Positions 43,068 to 62,423 of a DNA stretch of 64,000 nucleotides are shown here, piece after piece. Source of the stretch: a virus; IMG/VR virus record IMGVR_UViG_3300049139_000233, positions 1 through 64,000 of that record; one strand, given 5' to 3'. The translations under genes were made by a program, and so were the position numbers. The number at the start of each line of letters is the position of its first letter. Positions within the stretch are counted from its first letter, which is position 1. Under the pieces are notes generated by a model that was given only the letters and a program-made list of their open reading frames with translations, made no database searches and was not told the DNA's origin.

Positions 43068-44438
43068 TCACCCGATCGTCCGCGTAGCAGAGGCGAGGCC
43101 CCTGGACGACACCGTGCCGGTCACCGTCGGCTTCACGATCCGCTGGTGCCAGGCCGGCCAGACCATCGCGTCCAGCCGGTCCGGTGACCAGTCCAGCTCG
43201 TCGTACCAGGTGCAGAGCTGGTCTTCCAGTTCTTCGTACGTCCCGGCCATGTGCCAACGGCCCTGCTCGGTCAGGGCGCTCACCGGTTCCGCGCGGACCT
43301 TCTTGCCCCTGGTTGCGCGCACCACCTTGATGGGGATGTTGATGCCCATGGCGTCGGCGGCGGCCCGGATGGTGTTGACTGCCATGTCTCCGCCGAAGTT
43401 GACCTCCACGCAGATGTCGTCAGCCTCGTAGTCGATGGCCGCCTGCACCGCGCGCCGGCCCCAGCCGTCCGGCGACAGGCGGCAGGTGCGGTCGGCGAGC
43501 ACGTAGCCGTGGGCGAGGTTCACCTTCCGGCCGTCGGTCCGGACGTGCTCCAGCATCGCTTTGCCGTCCACGATGATGCCCTGTTCGCCCCGGCCGCCCG
43601 AGGGGTCCACGCCCACGGACTTGCGCACCATGTGCGGCAGGTCGCTGGGGCGCACACGCGTGGTGTCGAGCATCGCGCGGGTCCACAGCGCGTTCTCGTC
43701 CTGGTCGATGACCTCCGCGTACAGCTCCTGACGGCCGATCTGCGTACCGCCGTACGCGTCCTCCAGCGCAGTCCGGATGTCCTCGGGCAGGTGGGGGTTG
43801 TCGTACGTCGTCGCCCGGGTGACGACCGTGTTCGGTATCTCACCGGCCGTCAGCCGCTTGATGAGGGCACGCGGCTTGGGGGTGGTGGAGGCGACCCAGT
43901 GCGGGCGGGTCCCGGCGCGCAGACCGAAGCGCATCTGGTCCCACGTCTGGTCCAGGTACCTCCACGCCGCCAGCTCCTCGGCCCACACAACGCACCGGTT
44001 ACCGCCGGACCGCAGGCGTTCGACGTCCTCGGGTGAGTGCGACCCGAATACCTTCGCCTCGCTCCCGTTCGGCCAGCGGATGACTGTGCCGCCCTGCGCC
44101 GTGGTCATCCGCGCCTCGGGGCTGTGCACCCGAAGCCCGGAGGGCCCCGCGTAGCAGGACGTGACCGCGTCGCCGAGGGTCGGGGCGATGATGCCGACCC
44201 AGTGCGGGACGGGACCGGGCAGGCACGGCGGGCCCGTGACGTGCTCGTGGATGTACCGCGCGCAGGCGTCGGTCTTTCCGGCGCCGCGTCCGGCCATCAG
44301 CAGCCAGCCGTACCAGTCACCGGGCGGCGGGACCTGGTGGGGCAGCGGGGTCCATCGCGGCTCGGTCAGGGTGCGCGCGTGCATGAGCAGCTTCTCCGCC
44401 GCGCGGGTCCTCAGCCTCGCATCCACCATGCCGGTCAT
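43068..44438 (-). CDS. terminase large subunit (track start 44585)
   Basis: Walker A LMAGRGAGKTD, Walker B-like CVVWAEE, C-terminal nuclease-type region (VGVDPSGG.., NFGGDM). Start trimmed downstream of the hairpin 44556..44593. Confidence 0.85.
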   Translation of the reverse strand: MTGMVDARLRTRAAEKLLMHARTLTEPRWTPLPHQVPPPGDWYGWLLMAGRGAGKTDACARYIHEHVTGPPCLPGPVPHWVGIIAPTLGDAVTSCYAGPSGLRVHSPEARMTTAQGGTVIRWPNGSEAKVFGSHSPEDVERLRSGGNRCVVWAEELAAWRYLDQTWDQMRFGLRAGTRPHWVASTTPKPRALIKRLTAGEIPNTVVTRATTYDNPHLPEDIRTALEDAYGGTQIGRQELYAEVIDQDENALWTRAMLDTTRVRPSDLPHMVRKSVGVDPSGGRGEQGIIVDGKAMLEHVRTDGRKVNLAHGYVLADRTCRLSPDGWGRRAVQAAIDYEADDICVEVNFGGDMAVNTIRAAADAMGINIPIKVVRATRGKKVRAEPVSALTEQGRWHMAGTYEELEDQLCTWYDELDWSPDRLDAMVWPAWHQRIVKPTVTGTVSSRGLASATRTIG

Positions 44439-44555
44439 TGTCGGACGTCCCGGGCAGCGCGGTTTCCGGAGACGTGACGAGGCCCGCACAGGACGGGGGT
44501 GCCTGGCGGGCCTCGGTCTGCCGGTTGGAGTCAGCAGTGGTTCCGAGTGTACGCG

Positions 44556-44593
44556 GGAGAGCCCGTGCCGGGTCGTGGTCGGCACGGGCTCTC
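44556..44593 (-). terminator. GC hairpin after the hydrolase gene
   Basis: Stem ggagagcccgtgccg / cggcacgggctctc. Confidence 0.55.
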
Positions 44594-44670
44594 TGCGGCG
44601 GGCTACGGGGTGAGGCGGCCCCCGCTCCGGTCCTTGGCGCCGGCCCGCGCGGCCGTCTGCGGCGCCCTGC

Positions 44671-45726
<1,056 letters not shown>

Positions 45727-46551
45727 TCAGACGGTGGCCGGCTCGGGCAGCAGGCCGTGCTCGCGCGCCTTGCGCAGGGCGGCGGGCAGGCGTGAGCCCT
45801 TCTCCATCCACGCCACATCCAGGCGCCGGTACGCCTCGGACAGCCGGGTGGAGCAGGTGCCCCGGGCGAGGCCGAGGCGCTGCGCCGTCTCGGCGAGGGT
45901 GGCTCCGGACTCCATCTCCAGCAGCACCCTGGCCTGCGTGTCCGACAGCCGGACCTCGCTCTGCGGGCTGCGGGGGCGCGGCGGCGGCTCGCTGCGCAGG
46001 AGGCCGCGCATCCGGGCCTCACGCAGGGCCACCTCGCGGCGGACCGCAGGCGGGAGCTGGGAGACACCGAGTGCGGCGTAGGCCTCGGCGGTGAGGGTCT
46101 TCACGGTCCGGTGGCTGACGTTCCACGCCTGGCACACCTGCGCCTGTGTGCGCCCCGCGTCGAACGCGCGCAAGAGGCGTACGTGCGGCTCCGTGAGCCG
46201 GACCGGGCGGCGGGTGGCGGCGTCGGCTTCCATGCGTTCTCGGTTGCCTCGCTTGCAGGCGGCGCACACGGGCTCGTCTCGTTTGATGTGGCGCCGGTAG
46301 GCGGCGAGGAGCCCGCAGTCCTCGTACGGGCCGATGTGCCCGGCCAGCAGGCCGTCCCGGACGGCCTGCGCGGCGGTGGTCACACCCATCACCTCATAGA
46401 TCCGGGCGCAGGTTTTCCGTATGACGCTGGGCGCCCGGTTCGTCTTGCGGGCGATGTCCGCACAGGTGTGCCCGGTGGACAGCAGCCACAGGATGCGTCG
46501 TTGACCTTCCGTCAGGATGACGACCGGTGACGCGGAGTCCATGCGGACCAC
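45727..46551 (-). CDS. DNA-binding protein with three LuxR/GerE-type HTH repeats
   Basis: LTEGQRRILWLL..ADIARK.., LTEPHVRLLRAF..QAQVCQAW.., LSDTQARVLLEM..LAETAQRL... No receiver domain. Confidence 0.75.
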   Translation of the reverse strand: MVRMDSASPVVILTEGQRRILWLLSTGHTCADIARKTNRAPSVIRKTCARIYEVMGVTTAAQAVRDGLLAGHIGPYEDCGLLAAYRRHIKRDEPVCAACKRGNRERMEADAATRRPVRLTEPHVRLLRAFDAGRTQAQVCQAWNVSHRTVKTLTAEAYAALGVSQLPPAVRREVALREARMRGLLRSEPPPRPRSPQSEVRLSDTQARVLLEMESGATLAETAQRLGLARGTCSTRLSEAYRRLDVAWMEKGSRLPAALRKAREHGLLPEPATV

Positions 46552-46693: not shown

Positions 46694-47776
46694 TCACAGG
46701 CCCAGCCACAGCGGATGGTCCAGGGACCAGCGCACCGTGCGCTCCAGCGACTCCTCCAGCGGAACCGGAGGCTTCCAGCCGAGGGCGGCGAGCCGCGAGC
46801 CGTCCAGGGCGTAGCGCAGGTCGTGGCCGGGCCGCGAGGAGTGGAAGGACACCGGCTCGATGAGGTCGTCCACGATGGCCGGGTCCAGGCCCATCACGCG
46901 GCCGACCAGGTGCACCAGCTCCACGTTGTCGACTTCGCGCTCACCGACGATGTGGTACCGCTCGGGCCGGGTGAACGCCCCGTCGCTGTACCGCGCCGGG
47001 CCGGCGGCAATGCGGTACGTCTCCCCGCTCAGCGTCTGCACGTCGGGCGACCCCTCGGTGTACCGGCGCGTCAGGTGCAGCCAGGCGTCGGCGAGGTTGC
47101 GCGCGTGCAGGTAGAACCGGGAGCCCGGGGTGCCGTCGGGAGCGGTGTGCACCGTGACCGGCCGGCGATCGCGCAGCCGGCTGACGATCATGGGGAGGAA
47201 CTTCTCCCGGTCCTGCATCTCCCCGATGATGTTCATGGTGTTGGTGATGACGACCGGCACGTCGTAGGTCCGCCAGTAGCTGACCGCGATGGCCTCTTGG
47301 GCGGCCTTGGACGCGCTGTACGGGTTGGACGGCACGACCGGCTCCCACTCCGTGTGCCGGTGGTCGCCGTAGGCCGGGCCGTACACCTCGTCGGTGGACA
47401 TCTGGAGGAACACCCTCGGCCGGACGGACCGCGCGACCTCCAGGATGTTGAGCATCAGGGCGACGTTGTTCTGAACGAACGCTGCCGGGTCGGATATCGA
47501 CCGGTCGACGTGCGACTCGGAGGCGACGTTCATGATGACGTCGCAGCCCTCGAACTGGTGCAGGGTCAGCGGGTCGGCCGGCGCCCGCATGTCCCAGTGG
47601 ACGACGTGCACGCGTTCGGACCAGTCGGTGTCGCACACCGCCGACGCGATGCGCGCGGGGAGCCCCTTGTGCCGGAAGGACACCGGGCAGGTGATCTCCC
47701 AGTCCGTGTTCGCCAGCAGGTGGCGCAGGACGTGGCTACCGACGAAACCCGACGCGCCCGTGAGCAGGACGTGCAT
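46694..47776 (-). CDS. NAD-dependent sugar 4,6-dehydratase/epimerase (RmlB-like SDR)
   Basis: VLLTGASGFVGSH Rossmann motif, MSTDEVYG, YSASKAAQE (YxxxK). ATG preceded by cacggaacgaggagtggcc. Confidence 0.8.
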   Translation of the reverse strand: MHVLLTGASGFVGSHVLRHLLANTDWEITCPVSFRHKGLPARIASAVCDTDWSERVHVVHWDMRAPADPLTLHQFEGCDVIMNVASESHVDRSISDPAAFVQNNVALMLNILEVARSVRPRVFLQMSTDEVYGPAYGDHRHTEWEPVVPSNPYSASKAAQEAIAVSYWRTYDVPVVITNTMNIIGEMQDREKFLPMIVSRLRDRRPVTVHTAPDGTPGSRFYLHARNLADAWLHLTRRYTEGSPDVQTLSGETYRIAAGPARYSDGAFTRPERYHIVGEREVDNVELVHLVGRVMGLDPAIVDDLIEPVSFHSSRPGHDLRYALDGSRLAALGWKPPVPLEESLERTVRWSLDHPLWLGL

Positions 47777-47847
47777 GGCCACTCCTCGTTCCGTGGTCTG
47801 TGAGCGTGGCCGGATGGTAGCCAGGGACTCCGAAATCACCGAACGTG

Positions 47848-48452: not shown

Positions 48453-49097
48453 TCAGTCCTCCCGGGGTTCGTCGTCGGTCGTCTCGGACACCACTTCGCC
48501 CTCCAGCGTCCGCAGGTGCGCGCCGGCGGCCTCCAGCATCCGCTGCCGCTGCGCGGGCTCCAGCTCGACGGCGTTCGCACCGGCCAGGATCGCCTCCACC
48601 ACCACGGTGGTCTCCTCGTCCACCCGGCGGTCGAGCGCGATGGTCAGCCGCTCCGAGGAATCGGTGCCGTCGATCTTGGCCTGGCGTTCCTCGATGCGCA
48701 GCAGCCGGTCCACGGCCGCCAGCACCGGCGCGTCGTCCCGCAGGGGGTTGCCGTCGTCGTCGCGCACGATCTGGCCCGCGTGCAGCACGTAGTGCGGCCG
48801 GGCGAGGACCGCGTGGACCTGGCGGCGCAGGCCGTCCAGCCGCATCCGCGCCGCCTCGCGGTACTCCTCCAGCCCCATGGCCAGCTCGCGGTTCGCCTGC
48901 TTCAGCGCGCGAGAGACGTCCACGCACGCAGCGGCGGCCGACGGGTTGCCGTCGGAGTCCAGATAGTGCGGCGCCATCTGCTCGGCGACCTGCTGCCAGG
49001 ACAGGCCCCGGTTCTTCAGCTCGATGGCACGCGCCCGGCGCTGCGCCACCATCGCCCGGTGGCTCGGCTGGTGGCTGGGCGGATCACCCTTCGCCAT
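48453..49097 (-). CDS. terminase small subunit-like HTH protein (putative)
   Basis: RRARAIELKNRGLSWQQVAEQM HTH followed by a coiled coil, typical of actinophage TerS. It lies 4 kb from TerL. Confidence 0.5.
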   Translation of the reverse strand: MAKGDPPSHQPSHRAMVAQRRARAIELKNRGLSWQQVAEQMAPHYLDSDGNPSAAAACVDVSRALKQANRELAMGLEEYREAARMRLDGLRRQVHAVLARPHYVLHAGQIVRDDDGNPLRDDAPVLAAVDRLLRIEERQAKIDGTDSSERLTIALDRRVDEETTVVVEAILAGANAVELEPAQRQRMLEAAGAHLRTLEGEVVSETTDDEPRED

Positions 49098-49128
49098 AGT
49101 CCTTAGCCTCCCTAACAGTTAACGATGC

Positions 49129-49731
49129 TCACCAGCCCCGCCGGGCGCCGCGCGACGGAGTGCCGATGAGATCGAACAGGTCCGCGCGCTGCTGCGGGTC
49201 GTCCAGGAACACCCCGGTGTACGAAGCGGTGACCATCACCGCCCCCGGCTTCCGCGCACCCCGGTGGGCCAGGCACCCGTGCTCCGAGCGGATCACGCAG
49301 GCGGAGCCGAGGGTGTCCAGATGCTTGTCGAGTGCGTCGGTGACCTGCTTGGTGAGCTGTTCCTGCGTCTGGAGGCGCCGGGCGTAGACGTCCAGGACCC
49401 GGGGCAGCTTGGACAGACCTGCCACCCGCGCGCCCGGGGTGGGCAGGTAGGCGATGTCCGCCGTGCCCGTGAACGGCAGCAGGTGGTGCTCACAGACGGA
49501 CGTGAACTCCACCCCGGTCACCGCGATGGGCTGCCCGCCGCGCTCCACGTCGAAAGTGCGCTCCAGCAGCTCGCCGGCGTCCAGGGCGTAGCCGGCCGTG
49601 AACTCCTCCAGTGCCCGGAGCATACGGGCCGGCGTTCCGGCCAGGGCCTCGGAGTCGGGGTCCAGGCCCCGCCCGGCGAACCAGGTCCGCAGGCCGCTGA
49701 CGAACAGGTTGTGCGCGGTCGTCTCGCTCAT
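49129..49731 (-). CDS. folE: GTP cyclohydrolase I
   Basis: FTSVCEHHLLPF motif. 4-nt overlap with queE. Confidence 0.85.
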   Translation of the reverse strand: MSETTAHNLFVSGLRTWFAGRGLDPDSEALAGTPARMLRALEEFTAGYALDAGELLERTFDVERGGQPIAVTGVEFTSVCEHHLLPFTGTADIAYLPTPGARVAGLSKLPRVLDVYARRLQTQEQLTKQVTDALDKHLDTLGSACVIRSEHGCLAHRGARKPGAVMVTASYTGVFLDDPQQRADLFDLIGTPSRGARRGW

Positions 49732-50444
49732 CGGCCTCTCTCATCTCCCCACGCGTGGACGTGCAGGCGCGTGGTCACGTTGAATCCGGCTCGGATCGCG
49801 GGCTCCGCGATCTCGGACAGGTGGCGGGACAAGGTGGCGGAGTCCGTGCCCTCGGGCATGACCCACACCCGGCGGGCGGGGATCCCGTGTGCGGCCGTCA
49901 GCTCCACCGTTCCGGCGACGTCGCCGGCGTCGCGGCACACGACCTTGAACGCCGCCTTCCCCGTGGCGGCCAGGGCCTTGAGCGCCGTGCCGTTGACGCG
50001 CCGGTCCCCGGCGACCCCGGAGTGCGCCAGCTTGGGCGAGACGACGAACCGGGTCAGCAGCCGAGCCGTCTCCTCGCTCGGTTCCACCGTGCCGTTCGTC
50101 TCCGCCTCCACCCGGATCCCGGCGCCGGTCAGGCCGCGCAGAACAGCTCCCCAGCCCGGGTAGCCCTGCTGGAGCAGGGGTTCGCCCCCGGAGACGATGA
50201 CGAACCGGACTCCGGTGGCCAGCAGCCGGTCCACGATCATGTCCGCGTCCATGCGCCGCAGCTCAGCGCGCAGGTCGTGCCGCGAGGCGTCCCACGTCCA
50301 CGGGGTGTCACACCACGAGCAAGTGAGGTTGCAGCCGCCGAGCCGCAGGAACGCACACCGCTGGCCCAGCGTCGGGCCCTCGCCGGACACCGTCGGCCCG
50401 AAGATCTCCGAGACGACCAGGGACGGCCGCGCCGGCGCGGTCAC
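49728..50444 (-). CDS. queE: 7-carboxy-7-deazaguanine synthase (radical SAM)
   Basis: GEGPTLGQRCAFLRLGGCNLTCSWCDT cluster motif. Confidence 0.85.
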   Translation of the reverse strand: MTAPARPSLVVSEIFGPTVSGEGPTLGQRCAFLRLGGCNLTCSWCDTPWTWDASRHDLRAELRRMDADMIVDRLLATGVRFVIVSGGEPLLQQGYPGWGAVLRGLTGAGIRVEAETNGTVEPSEETARLLTRFVVSPKLAHSGVAGDRRVNGTALKALAATGKAAFKVVCRDAGDVAGTVELTAAHGIPARRVWVMPEGTDSATLSRHLSEIAEPAIRAGFNVTTRLHVHAWGDERGR

Positions 50445-50878
50445 GGTGACTCACCCGTCCAAGACGCCTCGTTGACGGCCGTCTCCCGCACGTCTACGTT
50501 CACCACGCGGGCGCCGTTGGCGTGGTCCACTGTGGCGAGGATCCCCGAGGCGACGGACGCCAGCAGCTCTGCTGTCGCCTCCACCGTCGGCCACGAGTCC
50601 TCGAACTCGAACACCTTGGAGCCCATCGAGCACAGCACGGGCAGCAGCGGGTCGGCAGTACCGAGCATCGCGCCGTGGTCCAGGTGGTGATCGATCCACT
50701 CGCGAACGGCGCGCTTGAACGCGCCGAACTCCACGACGATGCCGTCCGCGTTCAGGGCCGGGGCCGCCACGGTGATCTCCACCCACCAGGAGTGGCCGTG
50801 CAGGTTGAAGCACTTGCCGCCCAGCTCGGGCAGCCGGTGGGCGGTCTCGAAGTTGTGCCGGACCGTGACGCTGTTCAT
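50441..50878 (-). CDS. queD: 6-carboxy-5,6,7,8-tetrahydropterin synthase
   Basis: FETAHRLPELGGKCFNLHGHSW motif. Internal ATG of track ORF 50441..51370, with an ATGA overlap onto queC. Confidence 0.85.
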   Translation of the reverse strand: MNSVTVRHNFETAHRLPELGGKCFNLHGHSWWVEITVAAPALNADGIVVEFGAFKRAVREWIDHHLDHGAMLGTADPLLPVLCSMGSKVFEFEDSWPTVEATAELLASVASGILATVDHANGARVVNVDVRETAVNEASWTGESP

Positions 50879-51549
50879 GCCGCGTACTCCGTGGGGTCGG
50901 TGAGCCCGGCGTCGGCAAACGCCTCCTTGCGCTCGGTGCACGTCCCGCAGGTGCCGCAGTGCACGGCGCCACCCTTGTAGCAGGACCAGGACATGCCCAC
51001 CGGGGCGCCGATGCGCTCCGCGTAGGCGGCTATCTCCGTCTTCGTCATGCCGACGAACGGAGTGACGATCTGTGGGACGTGCAGACCCTTGAGCGCGACA
51101 GCCGCCAGCTCCCGCAGCGCGTCCACGAACTCGGGGCGGCAGTCCGGGTACACGGCGCGGTCGCCGGCGTGAATACCGAGGCCGATCAGCTCCGCGCCCC
51201 GGGCCGAGGCGACCCCCAGCGCGATGGACGCCATGATGGCGTTGCGGTTGGGCACTACGGTGGACTTCATCGACTCGTCCTCGTAGTGACCGTCCGGGAC
51301 GTCCACGGTCTCGTCGGTGAGGGAAGAGCCGGGCAGCAGCGGGGCGAGGGAGGACAGGTCCACCGTGCAATGCTCCGCGCCGAGGTAGCCGGCGATCCCG
51401 GCCGCCGCCTCCAGCTCCCGGGCTCGGTGCCGCTGGCCGTAGTTGAAGGACAGCAGCAGCAGGTCGTACTCCTTGCGCACGTAGTGTGCCGCCAGAGTCG
51501 TTGAGTCCATGCCCCCGGAGAACGAGAGCACGGCGAGCGGTTTGGTCAC
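50875..51549 (-). CDS. queC: 7-cyano-7-deazaguanine (preQ0) synthase
   Basis: VLSFSGGMDST PP-loop and C-terminal CGTCGTCTERKEAF zinc motif. Confidence 0.9.
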   Translation of the reverse strand: MTKPLAVLSFSGGMDSTTLAAHYVRKEYDLLLLSFNYGQRHRARELEAAAGIAGYLGAEHCTVDLSSLAPLLPGSSLTDETVDVPDGHYEDESMKSTVVPNRNAIMASIALGVASARGAELIGLGIHAGDRAVYPDCRPEFVDALRELAAVALKGLHVPQIVTPFVGMTKTEIAAYAERIGAPVGMSWSCYKGGAVHCGTCGTCTERKEAFADAGLTDPTEYAA

Positions 51550-52454
51550 GGAGTTTCCTTCCGTAGGTCAGCGGCGATGGCCTGGGCCGCCGGGGTGAAG
51601 TTGCTGATGGTCGTGTCGGCGAGGAACAGACAGGTGCCGCGCGAGGTCCAGCCGGGCGGCGGTGCGACGTCGTGGCGTTGCTGAAGCCATCGCCCGAGCC
51701 GGTGGTACGCGACGGCCGGGGTGCCGCGCATCATCCGGTCCTCGCGGCGGAACTGTTCAGGTGCCTTACCGGTCTTGAGGCCGAAACCGGGACGGCCGAC
51801 AACAGCAGGGTCGGCGCCGTGCGCGCGGATAAGCCGTGCCTGCCGGCGCACCCTCTCCGGATTGCCTGCCGACACCTGAACGATGCGCCCCGCACGGCCG
51901 TCAAAGAGCTTGAACAGGCCGAACTTGGCTCCATGACTCCAGGTGGACGAGTCCACGCTGTAGAACGGCAGCGAGGACATGACCGTGATGTTGGTCTGGC
52001 CGAAGCCGTGGAAGACGGTTCCGTGCGCGGCTCCGATGCGGAAGCAACGCACCAGCCAGCGCATGACCTCGCCGTACATCCGCGTGTACGGCACCATGCC
52101 GCCCAGAGCGACGTACCGGTACTGCGCACACAGCTTCTCCAGCCGCTCCCACGGAGACCCGACGTGGAAGACGGGGAGTACCTTCAGGCCCATGTCCTCC
52201 AGCGCGAGGGTGTTGCGCTGAGTCGCGTCCGGGTCGCCGATGACGTCCAGGGTCGCCGCCGTGGTGACGAGGTGCTGCCAGTCCTTCAGCCAGGCCGCGT
52301 AGTCGGCAAGGCGAATGGTCGAGCCGAGCGTGGCGGCAGAGAAGGCTCCCGAATCGGCGAACACCTCCACGGGGGCTCCGCCGGCGGCGTCCGCGATGGC
52401 CTGGAGATCCTTGCCCCGGCCGTAGTGGAACGACATCAGGAAGCGGAACGTCAC
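51546..52454 (-). CDS. dpdA: DpdA-like DNA-guanine transglycosylase, paralog 1 (302 aa)
   Basis: VFADSGAFS, LGGMVPY and PFYSVDSSTW TGT/DpdA-type motifs. GTG at 52454 in a GTGA overlap with paralog 2. Confidence 0.8.
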   Translation of the reverse strand: MTFRFLMSFHYGRGKDLQAIADAAGGAPVEVFADSGAFSAATLGSTIRLADYAAWLKDWQHLVTTAATLDVIGDPDATQRNTLALEDMGLKVLPVFHVGSPWERLEKLCAQYRYVALGGMVPYTRMYGEVMRWLVRCFRIGAAHGTVFHGFGQTNITVMSSLPFYSVDSSTWSHGAKFGLFKLFDGRAGRIVQVSAGNPERVRRQARLIRAHGADPAVVGRPGFGLKTGKAPEQFRREDRMMRGTPAVAYHRLGRWLQQRHDVAPPPGWTSRGTCLFLADTTISNFTPAAQAIAADLRKETP

Positions 52455-53380
52455 ACCACACCCCCTGGGGCGTTGTCCCGCTCGATCCTCAACGCACGTG
52501 CAGCCTGCTTGAACCGGGCCGGGTTGGCGTCCGCGAGGAAGAGGACCGTCCCCGGGTGCTCCCAGCCGAGGGGCGCGGGTACCTGGTGGCGTTTCGCCAG
52601 CCACTGCCCAAGACGGTAGAAGGCCACGGCCGGAGCCCCGCGCATCATCTGCGTCTCGACTGCGTGCTGCTTTGGAGTCCTGTGGGGGGACTGGGCGAAG
52701 CCCGGCCGGCCGACCAGAGCCGGGTCCGCCCCGTGAGAGCGCATCAGCGTCGCGTACCTGCGCGCCTGCGCCGGGTGGGAGACCTGCACCTGCACGATCC
52801 GGGCCTTGCGCTCGTCCCACAAAGGGAGCTGGCCGAAGCGTGAGCCCGCGCCCCAGGCGGAGGAGTCGACACTGTAGAACGGCAACGCGGCGAGGGTGGC
52901 AACCTTGGTTTGTCCGAACCCGTGGAACACGGTCCCTTGCTCCGCTCCGATGCGGAAGCACCGGATGAGCCACCGCAACACCTCATCGGAGTACTTGGCG
53001 TACGGCACCATGCCGCCAAGCGCGAGATACGGGTACGCCTTGCACAGCCTCTCCAGCTCGGACCAGGGCGAACCGACGTGGAAGGTGGGCAGGACGGTAA
53101 GGCCGGCCGACAGTAGAGCCTCAGTGTTGCGGTGCGTGGCGTCTGGGTCGCCGATGACGTCCAGGGTCGCCGCCGTGGTGATGACCTGGGACCACTCCTC
53201 CAGCCAGGCCGCGTAGTCCTTCAGGTGCACAGTGGCGCCGACGTTGGCGACGGAGAAGGCGCCCGAGTCGGCGAAGACCTCCACCGGTCCGCCGTAGAGC
53301 GCACGCAGCTCCATCACCAGCTCCGCCAGATCGACGTTGCGGAAGAAGGCGTAGGAGAGCAGGCAGCGCAGCGGGGTCAC
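52451..53380 (-). CDS. dpdA: DpdA-like DNA-guanine transglycosylase, paralog 2 (309 aa)
   Basis: VFADSGAFS, LGGMVPY and PFYSVDSSAW. GTG at 53380 in a GTGA overlap with the upstream ParB-like gene. Confidence 0.8.
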   Translation of the reverse strand: MTPLRCLLSYAFFRNVDLAELVMELRALYGGPVEVFADSGAFSVANVGATVHLKDYAAWLEEWSQVITTAATLDVIGDPDATHRNTEALLSAGLTVLPTFHVGSPWSELERLCKAYPYLALGGMVPYAKYSDEVLRWLIRCFRIGAEQGTVFHGFGQTKVATLAALPFYSVDSSAWGAGSRFGQLPLWDERKARIVQVQVSHPAQARRYATLMRSHGADPALVGRPGFAQSPHRTPKQHAVETQMMRGAPAVAFYRLGQWLAKRHQVPAPLGWEHPGTVLFLADANPARFKQAARALRIERDNAPGGVV

Positions 53381-54063
53381 TCGGCCGCCTTCACCCGCTG
53401 CACCAGGAACATGAAGCGCACCGAGTCGTCGGACGGGTCCTCGCAGTCCTTCGTCAGCTCCATGAAGTCGTCCCGGACGGCCGGCGGAACGCGCACCCGG
53501 ATGACGGGCCACAGGTCGGTCTCCTGGGGCTCGCCGTACTCCTCGGCGAGGTCGTCCAAAGACGGAGGGGGTTCGACGGCCGGAGGCAGTGAGGTGAACA
53601 GGTCCGCGTCGGACGGCTCGTACCCGGTGCCCACCAGGTCGTCCTCCAGCGAGGCGAGCAGGGCCGCCAGGGACGCGTCGTCGTAGGTGCCGTCGTCGGC
53701 GGCCTTGTTGTCCACCAGGTTGATGCGCGTGGCGGTCGCGTCGTCGCACTCGATGAGGTGCGCGAGCGCCGTCGGGTCGTCGGCGTCCACGTCCACGCAG
53801 AGCTGGCACGGCCGGTCGTTGGACAGCTCCCAGTCCTGGCACGCCTCGCGGCCGGACTCCTCGTGCCGCAGCAGCGCGAGGTACGTGTGGTTCCCGGCGA
53901 GGATGCTCAGGGTCTCGCCGTGCCGGCGCACCGTGAGCGGCTTGTACTGGCCGTTCGCGCGCAGGGAGTCGAGGATCACGTCCACGTTGCCCCGGCGTGC
54001 GTTGCCCTCGAACGGCGTGAGGTCTTCCAGGGGGACCCGCTCGGTCCCGATGGTCGTGGTCAT
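53377..54063 (-). CDS. ParB/Srx N-terminal-domain protein (DpdB-like candidate)
   Basis: PFEGNARRGNVDVILDSLRANGQYKPLTV..ILAGNHTYLAL. ATG at 54063 lies 7 nt after GGAGGA. Confidence 0.75.
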   Translation of the reverse strand: MTTTIGTERVPLEDLTPFEGNARRGNVDVILDSLRANGQYKPLTVRRHGETLSILAGNHTYLALLRHEESGREACQDWELSNDRPCQLCVDVDADDPTALAHLIECDDATATRINLVDNKAADDGTYDDASLAALLASLEDDLVGTGYEPSDADLFTSLPPAVEPPPSLDDLAEEYGEPQETDLWPVIRVRVPPAVRDDFMELTKDCEDPSDDSVRFMFLVQRVKAAE

Positions 54064-57993: not shown

Positions 57994-60900
57994 TCAGTCC
58001 TTCGCGTAGCAGTCGGCCCACGACCGGGCGGCCTTGGAGGCGCCGGCGGTGATGGGAACGCCTTTGAATTCGAACGTGAACGCCTCCAGCACGGCCTCCC
58101 GGACGCCGTCGACCAGGTGCTCGGGGACGCACAGCACGACCTCGTCGTGCACGACGCAGCGCAGCCACTCCAGGGCCTCGGGCAGCATGTCCGTCAGCCT
58201 CAACAGGCCTTCGCACATGATGTCGCGGGCGCCGCCCTGGCCCATGAGCGCCGGGGCCTGCGTCCAGGCGCGGTCCGGGTTGGCACGCATGAGACGGCCG
58301 AAGCCGTTGTCCAGCAGCTCGCCGGCCGCTGCCCGGTCGCGCACCTCCTGGCGCCAGGCGCACAGCCCGGGGTACTGCGCGTTCATCTGGTCATCGAACT
58401 TCTGCGCCAGCTCCAGCTCCACGCCCGAGTTGGCGATGCCCTTGACGGACATGCCGTAGTTCCAGCCGTGGCCGATGCGCTTGGTGTAGTCGCGCCACTC
58501 GCAGGTGTGCTTCGGCCCGATGCACTCACACCGGGAGCGGCCGAACACAGCGTCGGTGACCATGCTGTGCGCGTCGACCCCGGGCGCGAAGTTCTGCATG
58601 TACGCCGGGTCCTGGCAGTGGCCGGCGATGGCGCGCATGTCGACCTGGTCCATGTCGAAGCAGATCAACAGGTGGCCGTCGTCGGCGATGAGCGGGCGCC
58701 GCTGGTGCACCTTCCCGCCGCGCTTGCCGATGTTGGTCACCGACGGGCGTACGTAGGCCCACCGGCCGGACCCCTGAAGGTCGCCGACCTGCGGGTGGAC
58801 CCGGTCGCCGATCAGGTGGTCCATGATCTCCTGATACTTCTGCACCGAGGACGTCACGGTGACGATGTGGCCGCACATCTCGCGCAGCGCGTCCACGTCG
58901 GCGCCACGCTCGGCGAACACCCTCAGCACGTTCGGGTTGAGCATGGCGGGTACCTGCCGGGCGCCGGCGCCCTTGCCGAGCATGTAGGACGCCTCGCCCA
59001 GCGCGTCCTTGTTCAGCGCGATGTCCCCGGACGGCGTCTTGGGGTAGTGCTGCACACCGCGCTCGGCGAGGGCCCTGATGACCGCCTCCTTGCCCACGGT
59101 GGTGGACAGCGGAGACTTGACGGGCACCTCGGTGAACACCCGGTTCTTGCCCCGGCCCTTGCCCTCGGTCTTGGTCAGCGGGATGCCGCAGTTGTCGTGC
59201 AGCCACTCCAGCGACGCCTGCCGCTTAGCGGCCTCCTCCTCGACCATCTCGCGCAGCACGGGGACGTCGACCTTCCAGCCGGTCAGGGTCGGCCGGTGCT
59301 GGATGTGGGCCACGCGCATCTCGCGCCGCACGTAGTCCGACGGCTCGCCCAGGGCGCGCCGCACGCCCCGGGTGGCCTGGAGGTCGCCGCTGAAGTAGGT
59401 GCTCAGCTCGTTGACCGGGATGCGCCCGTATCCGAGGTCGGTGCGCTCCTCCTTGGTCAGCGACTTGCCGCCAGCCTCGGCCGGGCCGTACTTGAAGGCG
59501 AGCGCGGCCAGGTCGTCCGTCTTGCCGTTGACCCCGTACCGCAGAGCCGTCTTGTCCAGGCCGTAATAGCCCTTCTCGGCCCACGGCTTCTCGTGCGCGG
59601 CGCCGGGCGGGTTGATGGTCTGCTCCCAGCGCAGGGTGTCCACCGCCTTGGCAGCCAGCTTGTCGTAGTCGGCGCCGTGGTGGATGGCGAGGGCCATCAG
59701 GTCGAACCCGAGCAGGTTGTGACCGTACAGCTCGTCGGCGTCCTCCAGTCGCTTGATCAGCTCGTCCACGGAGTTGACGACGACCTCGGTGCCGTCCTCG
59801 GTGACGTAGCCGGCCAGCCGGACGTACGGGTCGCCGCCGAGATCCTTGTGCGTGAACAAGTGCTTGGCGGAGTGGGTCTCCAGGTCGAACCCGACGCAGC
59901 CCCCGGCGCGCGGGACGGCCTCGGCCTCGGGCGGCGGGGACGGGGCGGGGACGGTGGCCACGGGCGCGCTCACGGGTTCCGCTTCCGCGAACGGATCACC
60001 GTTGAACGGGTCCGCATCGGGGGCGGCCCCGGACCGTGTACCGCCTGTACCGTCTCCTCCGTATGACCCTATAGGAGAGCCATTTTCTGTGTTATACCCC
60101 GAAGGCGGTACAGGGGGTACACCGTTGTCGCCACCCTCGTTGACCTCGTCGTTTTCGTACGGGTCCTGGAAGCGCACACCCAGCCAGGCGTAGTAGTTGA
60201 CGCCCGTCGTGCTGCCCGGGGACAGCGTTGACCGCCCGTCCCGCGCCCGGATCTTCTTCCGCGTGACGCCGTTCCGCGAGCACTCGTCGTGGCTTCCGAA
60301 TCGGCTGACGAACGTGCGGTCCGTCCACTCCCGGTGGCCCTTGTCCTCCAGGTACTTGTTGAAGACCTCGTGCAGCTCCTTGGCGAGGATGTGGCTGTTC
60401 CAGTCGAACGTCAGGACGTCTCCGATGAACGACAGCACCAGGTCCGACTCGCGGCGCCAGTCCAGCGTGTCGTCCTCCACCCGCTTCGGCGGCGGCGGCA
60501 TGATCTGCCCGGCCGCGTACCACCGGCGCGCCCCGGCCACGGCCCACGCCAGGACGGCCTCGGGCACCCTCTCGTCCGTTGCGAGGCGCTGCCGCAGCGT
60601 CCCGTCACCCGGCTTGTCGTTCGGGCCCGTGCACGGCTCTCCCGGCTTCCTGAACGTGTACGGGAAGGACAGCAGGGCGAGGCGCCGCCACGTGCCGTGG
60701 TCGGTCTCGTCCACCAGCGGCCGGTGGTTGGTGTTGATGACCAGCGTGTGCGACGTCGTGAACGTCACCGGGTCCTGCCGCATCCGGCGCGCCTTGATGG
60801 CCTTCGTGCCGGCGAGCTGTTTGGCGCGGTTGACGTCCAGCCGCTTGGCCTCCGGGGTCTCCTCCAGCACCGCGAGGCGGGCCCCCATGAAGTCCATCAT

Positions 60901-62367
60901 CTCGGTCGGGTGGTTGTCGGACGCGTTGCCGAGCAGGGCCCGGTGCGAGACGACGGTGTGATAGCCGCCCTTCTCGCCGAACGCGCGGGCGATCGCGTCC
61001 ATGACCGTCGACTTGCCGTTGGAGCCGCCGCCCTGGAGCAGCATGATGATGTCGTCCGGCGGGATGTGGCCGGTGGCCGCCTGGCCGATGCGGAGCTGGA
61101 ACCAGTCCATCACGTCCTCGGGGACGGCCTCCAGTGCCTTCTCCCAGTCGGGGTGGCGGGCGCCGGGGACGTAGTCCGCCGCCGTGATCTTCGTCATCAG
61201 CCGGTCGGGGTCGTGCGGGGTGAGCACGCCGGTCTTGAGGTCCAGGATGCCGTTCTGGCAGTTGAGGGCGTCGGGGTCGTAGTCGAAATCCGAGGCCGCC
61301 GACTCCAGGATGCCCCGGCTCAGCTTGAGCAGGTTGCCCAGCTTGGATGCGGCGAGCGCACCGCGCCAGCCGTCCATCTGGCTGCGCAGGTCCTTGTTCG
61401 GCTCGTTGCGCTGCTGGTCGAGCACCCGCTGGAAGCCGGCGAGTGCCCACTGCCGGATGTCCTCCATGACGGCGGCGTCCGTGCACTCGGTCCACACCTT
61501 GCCGTCCCAGCGCATCCACCCGAGCCCGGCGGCCCAGCGGTAGCGGCCCTCCAGCGCTTCGGAGCACACCGTGTCGGCGAGAACGGCGTCGCTGAATGCG
61601 GCGTCGCGGGTGTTGTCGCTCGGCATCTCGGCGGTGGCCGCGTCGCGCAGGCCCTCCAGCGTGCCGCCGGCGTGGAAGTAGTCGTCCACGCCCTTGACCT
61701 GCGCCCCGTTCACTTCCTCGGGGACGATCAGGTAGCGGATGTCGGTGGCGCCCTTGGACTCCAGCCACATGCCGAGCCGGCGCATGGCCATGAGCACCAT
61801 GCGGTTGTGCCGGGCGTCGGAGTCGAAACAGATGACGACGGTGCGGCCCTTGAGAGGGATGTCCTCCCAGTCCCCGAGGGTGCCCAGGCGGGAACGCCAG
61901 TTGAAGACGCCGGACAGGCTCACGACCGGCAGTCCCTTGGAGGCGAGGGAGTCCGCCTTCTTCACGCCCTCGGTGATCCACAACGGGGCCGACGCCATGC
62001 GCACGGCGTTCGCCATGAGCGGCGGGACGTCCAGGCGCGGCTTCGTGCCGACGGGGGACGCGTATTTCATCATCTTGTCGCCGCTGCCGCTGCTGTGCGG
62101 CTGCGGCTGGCCGGGCTTGAACTGAGCGCCGATGCGCTCACCGGTCACCCGGTACAGCGGGATGAGCAGGCCGGGGAACGCGGTGTCCTCGCGCCAGGCC
62201 CACACCGGGATGGACTCCTCGCGCAGCCGCGCGCGGTCCTCGTCGCTGCCGTACAGGGTTTCGTAGCCGCGTGCGTCGCGGTGCTCCGGGGCGATCTCGC
62301 TGGCGTCCAGCTCCGCCAGGTGGTGGTCCGACAACTGCCCCGCGTTCGTGTCCACGTACGTGGTCAT
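57994..62367 (-). CDS. fused replicase: Toprim primase-like domain + P4/D5-type SF3 helicase + family A DNA polymerase with 3'-5' exonuclease (1457 aa)
   Basis: WITEGVKKAD..ICFDSDA (Toprim). GGGSNGKST / VLEETPE (Walker A/B). FDLETHS, GHNLLGFDL (exo). CFDMDQVDMR, KRIGHGWNYG, VVHDEVV (Pol A/B/C). ATG at 62367 preceded by accaaggaatcgaggaaacaccg. Confidence 0.85.
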   Translation of the reverse strand: MTTYVDTNAGQLSDHHLAELDASEIAPEHRDARGYETLYGSDEDRARLREESIPVWAWREDTAFPGLLIPLYRVTGERIGAQFKPGQPQPHSSGSGDKMMKYASPVGTKPRLDVPPLMANAVRMASAPLWITEGVKKADSLASKGLPVVSLSGVFNWRSRLGTLGDWEDIPLKGRTVVICFDSDARHNRMVLMAMRRLGMWLESKGATDIRYLIVPEEVNGAQVKGVDDYFHAGGTLEGLRDAATAEMPSDNTRDAAFSDAVLADTVCSEALEGRYRWAAGLGWMRWDGKVWTECTDAAVMEDIRQWALAGFQRVLDQQRNEPNKDLRSQMDGWRGALAASKLGNLLKLSRGILESAASDFDYDPDALNCQNGILDLKTGVLTPHDPDRLMTKITAADYVPGARHPDWEKALEAVPEDVMDWFQLRIGQAATGHIPPDDIIMLLQGGGSNGKSTVMDAIARAFGEKGGYHTVVSHRALLGNASDNHPTEMMDFMGARLAVLEETPEAKRLDVNRAKQLAGTKAIKARRMRQDPVTFTTSHTLVINTNHRPLVDETDHGTWRRLALLSFPYTFRKPGEPCTGPNDKPGDGTLRQRLATDERVPEAVLAWAVAGARRWYAAGQIMPPPPKRVEDDTLDWRRESDLVLSFIGDVLTFDWNSHILAKELHEVFNKYLEDKGHREWTDRTFVSRFGSHDECSRNGVTRKKIRARDGRSTLSPGSTTGVNYYAWLGVRFQDPYENDEVNEGGDNGVPPVPPSGYNTENGSPIGSYGGDGTGGTRSGAAPDADPFNGDPFAEAEPVSAPVATVPAPSPPPEAEAVPRAGGCVGFDLETHSAKHLFTHKDLGGDPYVRLAGYVTEDGTEVVVNSVDELIKRLEDADELYGHNLLGFDLMALAIHHGADYDKLAAKAVDTLRWEQTINPPGAAHEKPWAEKGYYGLDKTALRYGVNGKTDDLAALAFKYGPAEAGGKSLTKEERTDLGYGRIPVNELSTYFSGDLQATRGVRRALGEPSDYVRREMRVAHIQHRPTLTGWKVDVPVLREMVEEEAAKRQASLEWLHDNCGIPLTKTEGKGRGKNRVFTEVPVKSPLSTTVGKEAVIRALAERGVQHYPKTPSGDIALNKDALGEASYMLGKGAGARQVPAMLNPNVLRVFAERGADVDALREMCGHIVTVTSSVQKYQEIMDHLIGDRVHPQVGDLQGSGRWAYVRPSVTNIGKRGGKVHQRRPLIADDGHLLICFDMDQVDMRAIAGHCQDPAYMQNFAPGVDAHSMVTDAVFGRSRCECIGPKHTCEWRDYTKRIGHGWNYGMSVKGIANSGVELELAQKFDDQMNAQYPGLCAWRQEVRDRAAAGELLDNGFGRLMRANPDRAWTQAPALMGQGGARDIMCEGLLRLTDMLPEALEWLRCVVHDEVVLCVPEHLVDGVREAVLEAFTFEFKGVPITAGASKAARSWADCYAKD
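60037..60121. repeat. 85-bp iteron element, copy B, embedded in the helicase-polymerase linker coding region
   Basis: TGTACC-gcc-TGTACC / 55 nt / GGTACA-ggg-GGTACA. Collinear with 13946..14030. Confidence 0.7.
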
Positions 62368-62423
62368 CGGTGTTTCCTCGATTCCTTGGTCCGTGCTTCC
62401 TTGGTCTGCTGGGGCGTGGGCAC

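Follow-up and report, generated by a model that had tools for sequence, protein, structure and literature searches.

The module gp1-gp6 of Mycobacterium phage Rosebush (cluster B2), also present in CRB2 and relatives, encodes on one strand a ParB-like protein, DpdA, QueC, QueD, QueE and FolE, followed by packaging genes and TerL. In Rosebush DNA, dPreQ0 accounts for 28% of G and is essentially the sole deazaguanine, and the DNA is resistant to restriction enzymes (PMC6884629). Deletion of the DpdA gene of phage CAjan abolished dPreQ0 (PMC6884629). Homology of gp1 to dpdB was already suggested in print in 2019 (PMC6392294). A second related module is gp1-gp9 of Microbacterium phage Megan/Nicole72 (cluster EC), with a ParB-like gp1 (annotated as "hypothetical"), two tandem DpdAs, preQ0 genes and TerL. 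The tandem DpdAs of Megan are annotated, but a discussion of this arrangement was not found.

In Salmonella Montevideo, DpdA, an enzyme of the TGT superfamily, puts preQ0 in DNA and requires the adjacently encoded ParB-fold ATPase DpdB; bacterial DpdA is a monomer and forms no stable complex with DpdB (PMC10164549). Some phage DpdAs, e.g. DpdA2 of nt-1 and VH7D, insert preQ0 in E. coli without a partner (PMC10516641). In the phage pair 5mYOX176/ParB176 (O'Toole et al., PNAS 2026), the gene of a post-replicative DNA-modifying enzyme, a T-dioxygenase, lies next to that of a small ParB-like protein, and experiments showed that the dioxygenase needs this cognate protein on dsDNA (PMC13229309). Proteins of the ParB176 type consist of a nucleotide-binding and a C-terminal domain, lack a DNA-binding domain and are specific for their cognate enzyme, and the dependent dioxygenases bear an extra C-terminal extension (PMC13229309). 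DpdA is not mentioned in that study.

The window analysed here is a stretch of 64,000 nucleotides with a G + C content of about 70%. The presence of genes for a tape measure protein, major capsid protein, portal, TerL and a primase-polymerase fusion identifies it as phage DNA, and the phage is of the Streptomyces type. Seven ORFs on the minus strand (window positions 49129-54063) follow each other in the order ParB-like, DpdA-a, DpdA-b, QueC, QueD, QueE and FolE (Table 1). The first-pass annotation had described a tightly coupled operon with overlaps at most junctions. The coupling was found as described, but its extent was understated, as all six junctions are 4-nt start/stop overlaps (GTGA or ATGA).

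Table 1 Features of the modification cassette and its surroundings (window coordinates)
Feature	Position	Strand	Remarks
ParB-like protein	53377..54063	-	228 aa; phrog_723 6.9e-40; SD-like GGAGG upstream of ATG at 54063
Left recombination breakpoint of modification cassette	53596..53620		inside ParB-like gene, about codon 148-156
DpdA-a, upstream DNA-guanine transglycosylase paralog (clade a)	52451..53380	-	309 aa; phrog_887 2.6e-41
DpdA-b, downstream DNA-guanine transglycosylase paralog (clade b)	51546..52454	-	302 aa; phrog_887 1e-50
QueC (7-cyano-7-deazaguanine synthase)	50875..51549	-	224 aa; Pfam QueC 1.4e-59; without amidotransferase fusion
QueD (6-carboxytetrahydropterin synthase)	50441..50878	-	145 aa; Pfam PTPS 1.2e-24; phrog_2389 3.6e-34
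QueE (7-carboxy-7-deazaguanine synthase, radical SAM)	49728..50444	-	238 aa; phrog_2076 6.3e-58; Pfam Radical_SAM 2e-10
FolE (GTP cyclohydrolase I)	49129..49731	-	200 aa; Pfam GTP_cyclohydroI 1.1e-53
Right cassette boundary	49098..49128		homology to relatives with other cassettes resumes at 49124, 5 nt past FolE stop
Flanking gene	48453..49097	-	214 aa; phrog_645; conserved, outside cassette

The family matches in Table 1 far exceed what chance would give. QueC and FolE passed the NCBIfam cut-offs (TIGR00364, 185 bits against 150.3; NF006825, 188.7 bits against 174). The top NCBIfam matches of QueD (TIGR03367 QueD) and QueE (QueE models) were below the respective cut-offs. The QueC translation shows the SGGMDS PP-loop and a Cys cluster at the C-terminus, and that of QueE the CxxxCxxC motif. 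The steps from GTP to preQ0 catalysed by FolE, QueD, QueE and QueC are an established pathway, and the gene content suggests that the phage would perform all of them. QueF, a GATase-QueC fusion, ArcS and DpdC were not found within the operon and the scanned neighbour genes. Gene content, the matches to Pfam, PHROGs and NCBIfam and the Rosebush module thus uphold the earlier assignment as a 7-deazaguanine DNA-modification operon. The same applies to preQ0/dPreQ0 as predicted base, since the gene set is that of Rosebush, for which dPreQ0 was measured (PMC6884629). By these comparisons, the operon is a predicted dPreQ0 module of the Rosebush type, with a DpdA of the same subfamily and a ParB-like protein of the same family. 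It differs from Rosebush, which has one DpdA (385 aa, ca. 32% identical to the window copies), in its two diverged DpdAs and in the Streptomyces-type tail of its ParB-like protein. In Megan, QueC is a long form of 455 aa, probably a Gat-QueC fusion, which would give dG+ instead.

Both window DpdAs are related to the DpdA of CAjan (DpdA-a: 33% identity, E 5e-26; DpdA-b: 39% identity, E 2e-32), and their start calls give the same lengths as in the database proteins P0050 and P0001. That there are two diverged copies with three common motifs, as noted earlier, was borne out: the copies are 58% identical to each other (E 1e-127; dN 0.35, dS 0.84) and share DSGAFS, LGGMVPY and FYSVDSS(A/T)W. The residues D34-S-G-A, D70, D74, H97, G118, H149-G and D168-S-S vary hardly or not at all among 131 sequences covering every DpdA paralog clade, and the presumed base-contacting residues are identical in DpdA-a and DpdA-b. 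Divergence lies mostly outside the catalytic core, with 62% identity in the barrel compared to 44% in the C-terminal domain. Directly behind the nucleophile Asp lies a hypervariable hairpin (residues 181-200), and 26 positions are fixed differently between clades a and b. The AF2 model of DpdA-a (pLDDT 95.4) gave actinophage DpdAs as top BFVD matches. Against the PDB, Foldseek returned only generic TIM barrels, with TGT and Salmonella DpdA absent from the top 50, and a PDB-sequence profile search yielded no match. The connection to solved TGT/DpdA structures is therefore drawn from the motifs and the homology to phage DpdAs.

The ParB-like protein, whose start call agrees with 228-aa orthologues, comprises an N-domain of the ParB/Srx fold (residues ca. 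1-150) and a cassette-specific C-terminal tail (ca. 157-228). In the AF2 model (pLDDT 88.8), two helices of the tail come after an extended segment, a possibly ribbon-helix-helix-like arrangement. The top Foldseek matches in the PDB were ParB CTPase domains (7bnk/6sdk, PadC, Noc, KorB; best E 4e-7), which confirms the fold. Its GxxRxxA box reads AGNHTYLA and lacks the arginines, so that nucleotide binding is uncertain. Membership in the DpdB family was considered and rejected: the protein has only 228 aa, carries AGNHT in place of DGQQR, has no SspE-like C-domain and matched no DpdB model in PADLOC and NCBIfam searches. The window DpdAs likewise matched no bacterial DpdA family model, and the operon lacks the restriction genes DpdC-K. 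Its purpose would be self-protection through dense modification, and not a restriction-modification system as in bacteria. Of the suggested DpdB analogy, at best a DpdB-like way of working stands, while homology in the family sense does not.

The cassette appears to be exchangeable as a unit. Homology in blastn to the syntenic relatives L130 and L132 (86-88% identity) stops at window positions 53620 and 53596, within the ParB-like gene. In syntenic relatives whose flanks are both ca. 80-90% identical at the nucleotide level, the slot is filled by AADT, a PLP enzyme, a kinase and Tet_JBP, or by a C5-methylase, an Asn-synthase-like protein and a methyltransferase. The ParB-like N-domain is kept during this exchange and the C-terminal tail is changed; L130 has its Tet_JBP cassette behind an N-domain ca. 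85-89% identical to that of the window. The flanking gene beyond the right boundary shows 82-90% nucleotide identity to L130/L132, whose cassettes differ. It found no match in Pfam, and its position ahead of the packaging genes suggests a small-terminase-like HTH protein.

A tie between the ParB-like gene and DpdA function, proposed in the first-pass annotation, is supported by linkage as well as by the tail travelling with the cassette. Of 84 related loci, 82 have the gene next to DpdA and in the same orientation. It neighbours DpdA at 78/79 loci where DpdA has the family C-terminal domain, compared to 6/21 barrel-only matches (Fisher p = 3e-12, a value that overstates independence, as the counted loci are phylogenetically related). 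From gene linkage, cassette swap and the published analogous proteins, we infer an accessory role. The protein would be a cognate factor of this DpdA subclass whose N-domain and tail probably bring DpdA to dsDNA, keep it there or activate it, which would resemble the part of DpdB beside bacterial DpdA and of ParB176 beside 5mYOX176, although here the partner is a transglycosylase, not a dioxygenase. Points against this reading come from the characterised systems, in which bacterial DpdA and DpdB form no stable complex (PMC10164549) and ParB176 is unimpaired by mutations of the NTP site (PMC13229309). Alternatively, the protein could have nothing to do with base insertion. It would then act in partition, at a packaging site, as a nuclease or in regulation, would happen to have a conserved place ahead of the packaging genes, and its N-domain would be merely a homology patch for cassette recombination. 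This fits with the degenerate arginine box, with the partner-independent phage DpdAs (PMC10516641), with the location near terminase genes in many phages and with family members that are not DpdA-specific (Pipefish gp1, at the left genome end, and TurkishDelight gp121/122, both without DpdA). However, at all checked loci the next gene encodes a DNA modifier, be it DpdA, a C5-methylase, AADT/Tet_JBP or a PAPS-reductase/DndC-like protein. Conservation of the DpdA-type tail extends to distant lineages, and in Kutzneria the gene sits between two DpdAs. Neither a ParA partner nor an HTH domain was found in scans of the operon and neighbour genes, and the related arrangement with ParB176 was proved to be an enzyme activator (PMC13229309). 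We consider an unrelated function unlikely.

Regarding the two DpdAs, dN/dS values of 0.18-0.34 (copy a) and 0.18-0.24 (copy b), compared to 0.12-0.27 for QueC, QueD, QueE and FolE, indicate purifying selection on both. In the phylogenetic tree, clade a (78% bootstrap), the core of clade b (100%) and clade c (100%) are separate, and none of 100 bootstrap replicates placed the two window copies as sisters. The a/b pair is kept on about 10 contigs. The DpdAs of Megan are each other's nearest relatives, so their duplication was independent; like that in Kutzneria, it received 100% bootstrap support. On these trees, duplications arose at least three times independently. At least two DpdAs occur in 19 of 95 distinct loci, and the copy number ranges from one to three among related cassettes, with three in a Streptomyces cattleya prophage. 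The duplication in the window thus appears to be old and maintained.

These data bear on the reason for keeping two copies. Eukaryotic TGT also combines two TGT-superfamily paralogs of one genome, QTRT1 and the catalytically lost QTRT2, and acts on tRNA and not on DNA. A heterodimer of this kind had been among the options suggested before; in its strict form it would be obligate, with the ParB-like protein as third subunit of one insertion machine. The genes of DpdA-a and DpdA-b always stand side by side with translational coupling, their pairing is conserved, and TGT-family enzymes may work as dimers (background cited in PMC10164549). The proposal is nevertheless weak, because both copies retain all catalytic residues, as do all 131 members, and show purifying selection; moreover, bacterial DpdA is monomeric (PMC10164549), Rosebush manages with one copy, S. 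cattleya carries three, and the duplications are recurrent. We regard a heterodimer as quite improbable. The sequences fit better with two active enzymes than with a catalytic/non-catalytic pair.

Two active enzymes could differ in substrate instead of DNA context, one using preQ0 and the other an intermediate such as CDG, or acting on RNA/tRNA or single-stranded replication intermediates. The DpdA2 enzymes of phages accept any of preQ0, preQ1 and CDG (PMC10516641), and about 26 related loci without QueC suggest CDG-inserting members of the family. Against this, the conserved active-site positions are the same in both clades, the operon yields a single end product, and the same pathway leads essentially to dPreQ0 only in Rosebush (PMC6884629). 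Such a split is in our view very unlikely, and the same low probability is given to a second copy that is redundant and adds gene dosage without functional divergence. Tandem duplication is an easy mutation and more DpdA could mean denser modification, but the copies are no more than 58% identical, belong to distinct clades of orthologues that many phages have kept, and differ by the 26 fixed positions, whereas redundancy in a size-limited phage genome would end in loss or homogenisation.

Parts of the arrangement are already known, namely the pairing of a ParB-like protein with DpdA (Rosebush gp1-gp2), the dpdB idea of 2019 (PMC6392294) and the tandem DpdAs in the annotation of Megan. The earlier view that no such phage machinery had been described was therefore overstated. 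The new part is the array of long-diverged DpdAs behind a ParB-like gene, which recurs in related phages; in a literature search, no paper analysing or testing a multi-DpdA arrangement was found.

Taken together, the operon is proposed to be a self-contained post-replicative DNA-modification cassette, a mechanism that we regard, graded as a whole, as evenly poised between right and wrong. Based on homology to CAjan DpdA and on the Rosebush module, the DpdAs would swap guanine in phage DNA for preQ0, and the resulting dPreQ0 would block restriction. The translational coupling of the seven genes and their site just upstream of the packaging genes suggest that replicated DNA is modified prior to packaging. 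A DpdA acting singly is motif-specific and reaches only a part of G: that of phage iggy modifies 16.5% of G at a GA motif, and that of CAjan 32% of G at two motifs. For DpdA-a and DpdA-b, we infer differing DNA-context preferences, comparable to phages carrying several methyltransferases, although the presumed base-contacting residues do not differ between the two. Two active paralogs of this kind may modify more G than a single enzyme would and so shield more restriction sites.

All seven genes of the cassette lie on the minus strand, and start and stop codons overlap by 4 nt at 6/6 junctions. The first-pass annotation had described this operon and its motifs, and ORFs, overlaps and PHROG/Pfam assignments bore it out in every detail. 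The four preQ0 enzymes QueC, QueD, QueE and FolE were identified with high confidence (Pfam, NCBIfam, PHROGs). The ParB-like protein and the upstream and downstream transglycosylase paralogs DpdA-a and DpdA-b had no Pfam match at all, while PHROGs gave clear assignments for all three. The sigma-70 promoter scan returned zero promoter-like sites, and the terminator scan two terminator-like sites, both on the opposite (+) strand and no more numerous than in shuffled sequence. The window has a G + C content of approximately 70%, and its phage origin is shown by structural, packaging and replication genes.

Features of the window, with coordinates and the assignments obtained
Feature	Position	Strand	Length and assignment
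tRNA-Ser, single	2453-2551	+	anticodon CGA
Glycosyltransferase	8342-9466		phrog_7162
Tape measure protein	17354-20701
Major capsid protein	25594-27489
Head-associated fusion	27558-30509		983 aa
Portal	30487-32388
TerL	43068-44843		591 aa
Lysin	44671-45726		transglycosylase/NlpC-P60/LysM
HTH-repeat protein	45727-46551		274 aa
Sugar epimerase/dehydratase	46694-47839		NAD-dependent, Pfam 4.8e-45
FolE	49731..49129	-	200 aa
QueE	50444..49728	-	238 aa
QueD	50878..50441	-	145 aa
QueC	51549..50875	-	224 aa
DpdA-b	52454..51546	-	302 aa, phrog_887 'queuine tRNA-ribosyltransferase' 1e-50
DpdA-a	53380..52451	-	309 aa, phrog_887 'queuine tRNA-ribosyltransferase' 2.6e-41
ParB-like	54063..53377	-	228 aa, phrog_723 'ParB-like' 6.9e-40
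Primase-polymerase fusion	57994-62589		1531 aa, DUF3854 / D5_N / DNA_pol_A

Outside the cassette, the 983-aa ORF is an unusual, large head-associated fusion; it has RNA-ligase-like PHROG matches at its N-terminus (residues 14-188), its C-terminal half matches PHROGs annotated as portal, virion structural protein or head maturation protease, and there is no Pfam match. The 274-aa protein, encoded beside the lysin gene directly upstream of TerL, carries three HTH/GerE-sigma70-region-4-like repeats.

CAjan gp35, a DpdA whose function is genetically proven, is 39% identical to DpdA-b (E 2e-32) and 33% identical to DpdA-a (E 5e-26), with alignments spanning the catalytic barrel (residues ~5-179). 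Both copies belong to the same PHROG and keep three conserved aspartate positions, D34 (DSGAF), D70/D74 (LDVIGD) and D168 (VDSS). The roles of these aspartates are those of the general acid in DSGxF, the base-recognition residue and the nucleophile. They may be equated with Asp95, Asp130 and Asp256 of bacterial DpdA by motif analogy, as distinct from structural superposition. The AF2 model of DpdA-a is confident (pLDDT 95.4, pTM 0.92) and barrel-like. Foldseek against the PDB returned generic TIM barrels only (E >= 3e-4); neither TGT nor DpdA was among the best 50, and a PDB-sequence profile search with the DpdA family found nothing. Matches in BFVD were actinophage 'queuine tRNA-ribosyltransferases' with a TM of up to 0.83 and, more weakly, proteins of nt-1 and phiST (phiST E 0.014). 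A canonical TGT was rejected for both copies, as neither matches Pfam TGT and the translations lack the CxCxxC of the Zn-binding CxCxxC...H site. Models of bacterial DpdA (NF041059, PADLOC DpdA) aligned over only ~58 residues at E 0.026-0.085, against a cut-off of 200 bits, and neither PADLOC nor NCBIfam offered a usable assignment of the window proteins to DpdA or DpdB. Based on these comparisons, DpdA-a and DpdA-b are predicted phage DpdAs of the Rosebush/CAjan type (DpdA1).

QueC, QueD, QueE and FolE follow the DpdAs directly in the same overlapping operon. The gene order is that of phage Rosebush, in which ParB-like gp1, DpdA gp2, QueC, QueD, QueE and FolE are followed by TerL. In Rosebush DNA, dPreQ0 makes up 28% of G and several restriction enzymes are resisted; deletion of the CAjan DpdA abolishes dPreQ0 (PMC6884629). 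QueF, DpdC, ArcS or an amidotransferase was found neither in the cassette nor in the scanned neighbours, and QueC is unfused, so dPreQ0 is the expected product. The preQ0 base predicted earlier is therefore supported by gene content and by the Rosebush-type order; the biochemical outline of that prediction was right, and its mechanistic steps beyond gene content are all ones that we infer. The phage Bipper has a Rosebush-like order without QueC, and a pattern of FolE, QueD and QueE only was found in 26/95 loci. Since QueC is missing, such a pathway would end at 7-carboxy-7-deazaguanine (dCDG), as suggested for Bipper. Many related loci from Streptomyces genomes and IMG/VR (L058, L061, L077, L092, L095-L102, L116 and others) place two to three ParB-like genes in tandem ahead of DpdA, and this type likewise contains QueD, QueE and FolE and lacks QueC.

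A search of 5.8 billion proteins yielded 1172 relatives of the DpdAs at E <= 1e-10. In the neighbour-joining tree (100 bootstrap replicates), clade a was recovered at 78% and clades b-core and c at 100% each. The tree assigned the window copies to separate clades, a and b, and they were sisters in 0/100 replicates. One clade-a and one clade-b member occur together on approximately ten contigs; the pair was read directly on four (L004/L008, L086, L087 and L005) and inferred for the others from equal-sized contigs and clade placement. At least two DpdA copies are present in 19/95 distinct loci of the subfamily. The largest array seen is that of a prophage in the S. cattleya chromosome CP003219 (L005, 7602-13516), which comprises a ParB-like gene, three tandem DpdAs, QueC, QueD, QueE, FolE, TerL and portal. 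Its DpdAs measure 301, 305 and 301 aa, one of them falling in clade c and two grouping loosely with clades a and b. In Kutzneria the order is DpdA, ParB-like, DpdA, and the Microbacterium phage Megan carries two DpdAs that were annotated and never discussed. The two copies of Megan are mutual closest relatives (bootstrap 100%), as are those of Kutzneria (100%), which indicates repeated duplication.

Several explanations for the paired DpdAs were weighed. The 58% identity of DpdA-a and DpdA-b, their separate clades and purifying selection led us to reject both an artefact of assembly and a recent duplication. Selection on the two copies is purifying and about as strong as on the rest of the operon, with dN/dS values of 0.18-0.34 for DpdA-a and 0.18-0.24 for DpdA-b against 0.12-0.27 for QueC, QueD, QueE and FolE. 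The first-pass annotation had raised a heterodimer as one possibility, by analogy with eukaryotic TGT; in that pair, QTRT1/QTRT2, one subunit is non-catalytic and the ratio is fixed at 1:1. This analogy proved to be its weakest part, as both copies keep the catalytic residues and related cassettes contain one, two or three copies. In 131 aligned sequences the active-site positions D34-S-G-A, D70, D74, H97, G118, H149-G and D168-S-S are invariant or nearly so. Conserved active sites, purifying selection and the old, separate clades argue against both a catalytic/non-catalytic heterodimer and mere redundancy. The favoured reading is that the cassettes encode two, sometimes three, transglycosylases that would all be active and would differ in their preferences. 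Multi-DpdA arrays are old, conserved and recurrent, and all copies are apparently active. The literature searched contains no discussion of two DpdAs.

Clades a and b share 62% identity in the barrel and 44% in the C-terminal domain. The hairpin immediately after the nucleophile Asp (residues 181-200) varies strongly even inside each clade. It is proposed that this hairpin could read DNA context, since bacterial DpdA has, following its nucleophile, an insertion with the Phe265 wedge, which acts at the DNA (PMC10164549). The single DpdAs described so far are motif-restricted and replace G partially, with 16.5% for the GA motif of iggy, 32% for the two motifs of CAjan and 28% for Rosebush.

The AF2 model of the ParB-like protein (pLDDT 88.8) had ParB CTPase domains, PadC, Noc, KorB and sulfiredoxin as its top Foldseek matches (E 4e-7 to 2e-3), confirming at the level of the predicted structure a ParB/Srx fold for the N-terminal domain. 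A PDB-sequence profile search with the family gave only matches to Noc and Spo0J at E ~0.1. The tail of ~70 aa was modelled as an extended segment and two helices at lower pLDDT (62-94). In place of the ParB arginine box GERRxRA the protein has AGNHTYLA, which aligns with GERRWRA of Noc and has lost the arginines; the box (L/V)AGNHT is nearly invariant across 44 homologues. Pfam detected no HTH domain in the protein, and ParA was found neither in it nor in the scanned neighbours. A canonical partition ParB acting as a CTPase clamp is rejected by the replaced GxxRxxA arginines and by the lack of both an HTH parS-binding domain and ParA in these searches. An N-domain insertion (window 53799-53842, residues ~75-88) carries a conserved C...PCxxC cluster, which together with the nearly invariant Cys106 may form a zinc site. 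The insertion is missing in shorter homologues, such as those of S. cattleya and the database protein P0176.

Bacterial DpdA requires the ParB-like ATPase DpdB, which has an SspE-like alpha-helical C-terminal domain, is roughly twice the size of the window protein and forms a dimer of 80-95 kDa (PMC10164549). In the ParB-like protein the DGQQR (DndB-type) NTPase motif is absent, its equivalent being (L/V)AGNHT, the C-terminus is the ~70-aa tail in place of an SspE-like domain, and a weak MTase_II match was the only one among PADLOC (E <= 1) and NCBIfam (0.1) models, those for DpdB included. Motif, size (228 aa) and models thus reject a true DpdB. The earlier suggestion of a DpdB analogue gains support as a way of working, given the genetic linkage to DpdA, and fails as family membership. 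The idea is not new; in the CRB2 genome paper, mycobacteriophage ORF1 had been put forward as a homologue of dpdB (PMC6392294).

To evaluate this linkage, 127 retrieved loci were scanned by HMM, and the count was taken over the 84 distinct loci with enough upstream sequence. In 82/84, a same-strand ParB-like gene immediately preceded the DpdAs or lay between them. DpdAs with the family C-terminal domain had a ParB-like neighbour in 78/79 loci, compared to 6/21 for barrel-only DpdAs (Fisher p = 3e-12, an optimistic value because the loci are related to each other). Judged by gene neighbourhood, ParB-like linkage defines a putative DpdA subclass marked by the C-terminal domain. Adjacency to DpdA was followed only loosely by an HMM built on the DpdA-type ParB tail (66/17/16/21): in loci with two to three ParB-like genes the tail-bearing copy lies one gene off, and distant lineages, Bipper and Megan among them, fall under the threshold. 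We therefore relied on cassette breakpoints.

The breakpoints were located with two syntenic relatives, the metagenome contig L130 and L132 (Streptomyces sp. NRRL S-455, JOCT01000029), whose flanks on either side of the module are ~80-90% identical to the window in nucleotide sequence. The alignments extend across the ParB-like N-domain, break off at window 53620 or 53596 (codon ~148-156) and begin again at 49124, 5 nt past the FolE stop. The N-domain region of L130 and a second metagenome contig, L131, is 88% identical to that of the window at the nucleotide level. The slot between these points holds the two DpdAs, QueC, QueD, QueE and FolE in the window; an amino-acid:DNA transferase (AADT), a PLP enzyme (PALP), a P-loop kinase and a Tet_JBP dioxygenase in L130/L131; and a C5-cytosine methylase, a GATase/Asn-synthase and a methyltransferase in L132. 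The cassette of phage TurkishDelight (gp121-125) is of the same C5-cytosine methylase type. Pipefish (cluster B3) has no DpdA and carries, two small genes downstream of ParB-like gp1, the PAPS-reductase-domain, DndC-like gene gp4 (L129, 1174-2256), annotated 'hypothetical'; this region may be another DNA-modification cassette.

The ParB-like tails differ with cassette type. The DpdA-type tail (PPPSLDDLAEEYGEP...DLWPVIRVRVPP.VRDDF...DDSVRF) persists in distant DpdA loci, where N-domain identity is only 45-60%. From the breakpoint inside the ParB-like gene and the variation of its tail with the cassette, we conclude that this gene is the first gene of each predicted modification cassette and that its tail belongs to the cassette. 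In closely related phages it heads what is, on these alignments, an exchangeable hypermodification slot, and a single recombination could apparently change the DNA chemistry of a phage.

A comparable partner is known for a phage T-dioxygenase (5mYOX176), which needs a ParB-like protein (ParB176) with a nucleotide-binding and a C-terminal domain and no DNA-binding domain to act on dsDNA; the requirement is specific to cognate pairs, and the ParB-dependent enzymes bear an extra C-terminal extension (PMC13229309, PNAS 2026). Of this architecture, the window protein shows a predicted ParB-fold N-domain and no HTH Pfam match; its tail, modelled at lower confidence, may correspond to the C-terminal domain. 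It is encoded beside a predicted DNA-modifying enzyme, and its N-domain is shared with the gene heading the Tet_JBP cassette of L130/L131, the sequence comparison being with these relatives. Earlier work has recorded ParBc proteins beside or fused to DNA methyltransferases and CmoX, describing their function as unknown (PMC12783734, PMC12704722). DpdA is mentioned neither in PMC13229309 nor in the ParB-fold survey, and ParB is absent from the two main phage-deazaguanine papers.

No close isolated phage was found: one 53-nt QueC match was all that megablast of the region retrieved from 50,697 phage records, and the best phage tblastn match to DpdA-a is 37% identical. The exact DpdA proteins (database entries P0001 and P0050) lie on a 92,595-bp JGI metagenome contig. 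Orthologues at 79-85% identity occur on an IMG/VR contig and on phage-sized contigs of NPDC126497 and NPDC017936, two Streptomyces assemblies that make a Streptomyces host very likely. Compared with the capsids of cluster B mycobacteriophages and cluster EC/EI Microbacterium phages, that of the window shows ~30% identity. The primase-polymerase fusion is conserved in L130 (1-4816), where ~1 kb of inserted sequence at window ~61010, encoding a LAGLIDADG domain, is probably an intein or homing endonuclease. A weak Hint_2 signal in the TerL genes of relatives is absent from the TerL ORF of the window. The sugar epimerase/dehydratase, encoded between cassette and TerL, and the glycosyltransferase are kept whatever the cassette type and may serve virion or cell-wall glycans rather than DNA modification.

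The DpdA/preQ0 module itself was already known; what is added here is the conservation of multi-DpdA arrays, the ParB-linked DpdA subclass and the ParB-headed exchangeable slot. A broader reading for actinophages is offered tentatively, and we consider it rather unlikely that all of its parts hold jointly. The conserved ParB-fold N-domain would anchor the slot and give homology for whole-cassette swaps, the cassettes being of deazaguanine, thymine/5hmU, C5-cytosine and PAPS-reductase type. The cassette-specific tail would couple the ParB-like protein to its cognate enzyme. Two to three ParB-dependent DpdAs with differing sequence preferences would raise G replacement well above the single-DpdA level, and DpdA would be the second enzyme class, after T-dioxygenases, under phage ParB-like activators.

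7-Deazaguanine DNA is a major phage counter-defence, and the findings bear on what sets the sequence specificity and modification density of DpdA and on why some DpdAs need a ParB-fold partner. For the former, they provide conserved pairs and triplets of active-looking paralogs, 58% identical in the window, with a hypervariable hairpin by the nucleophile; if the broader reading is true, such pairs would be a natural map of specificity determinants. For the latter, they provide a small ParB-like protein with a tail that varies with the cassette. The cassette swap shows a route by which close phage relatives alter their DNA chemistry. If the ParB-like protein activates DpdA, the bacterial DpdA/DpdB system (2023) and the phage ParB/T-dioxygenase pair (2026) would be joined in one principle, the control of DNA-modifying enzymes in general by ParB-fold proteins.
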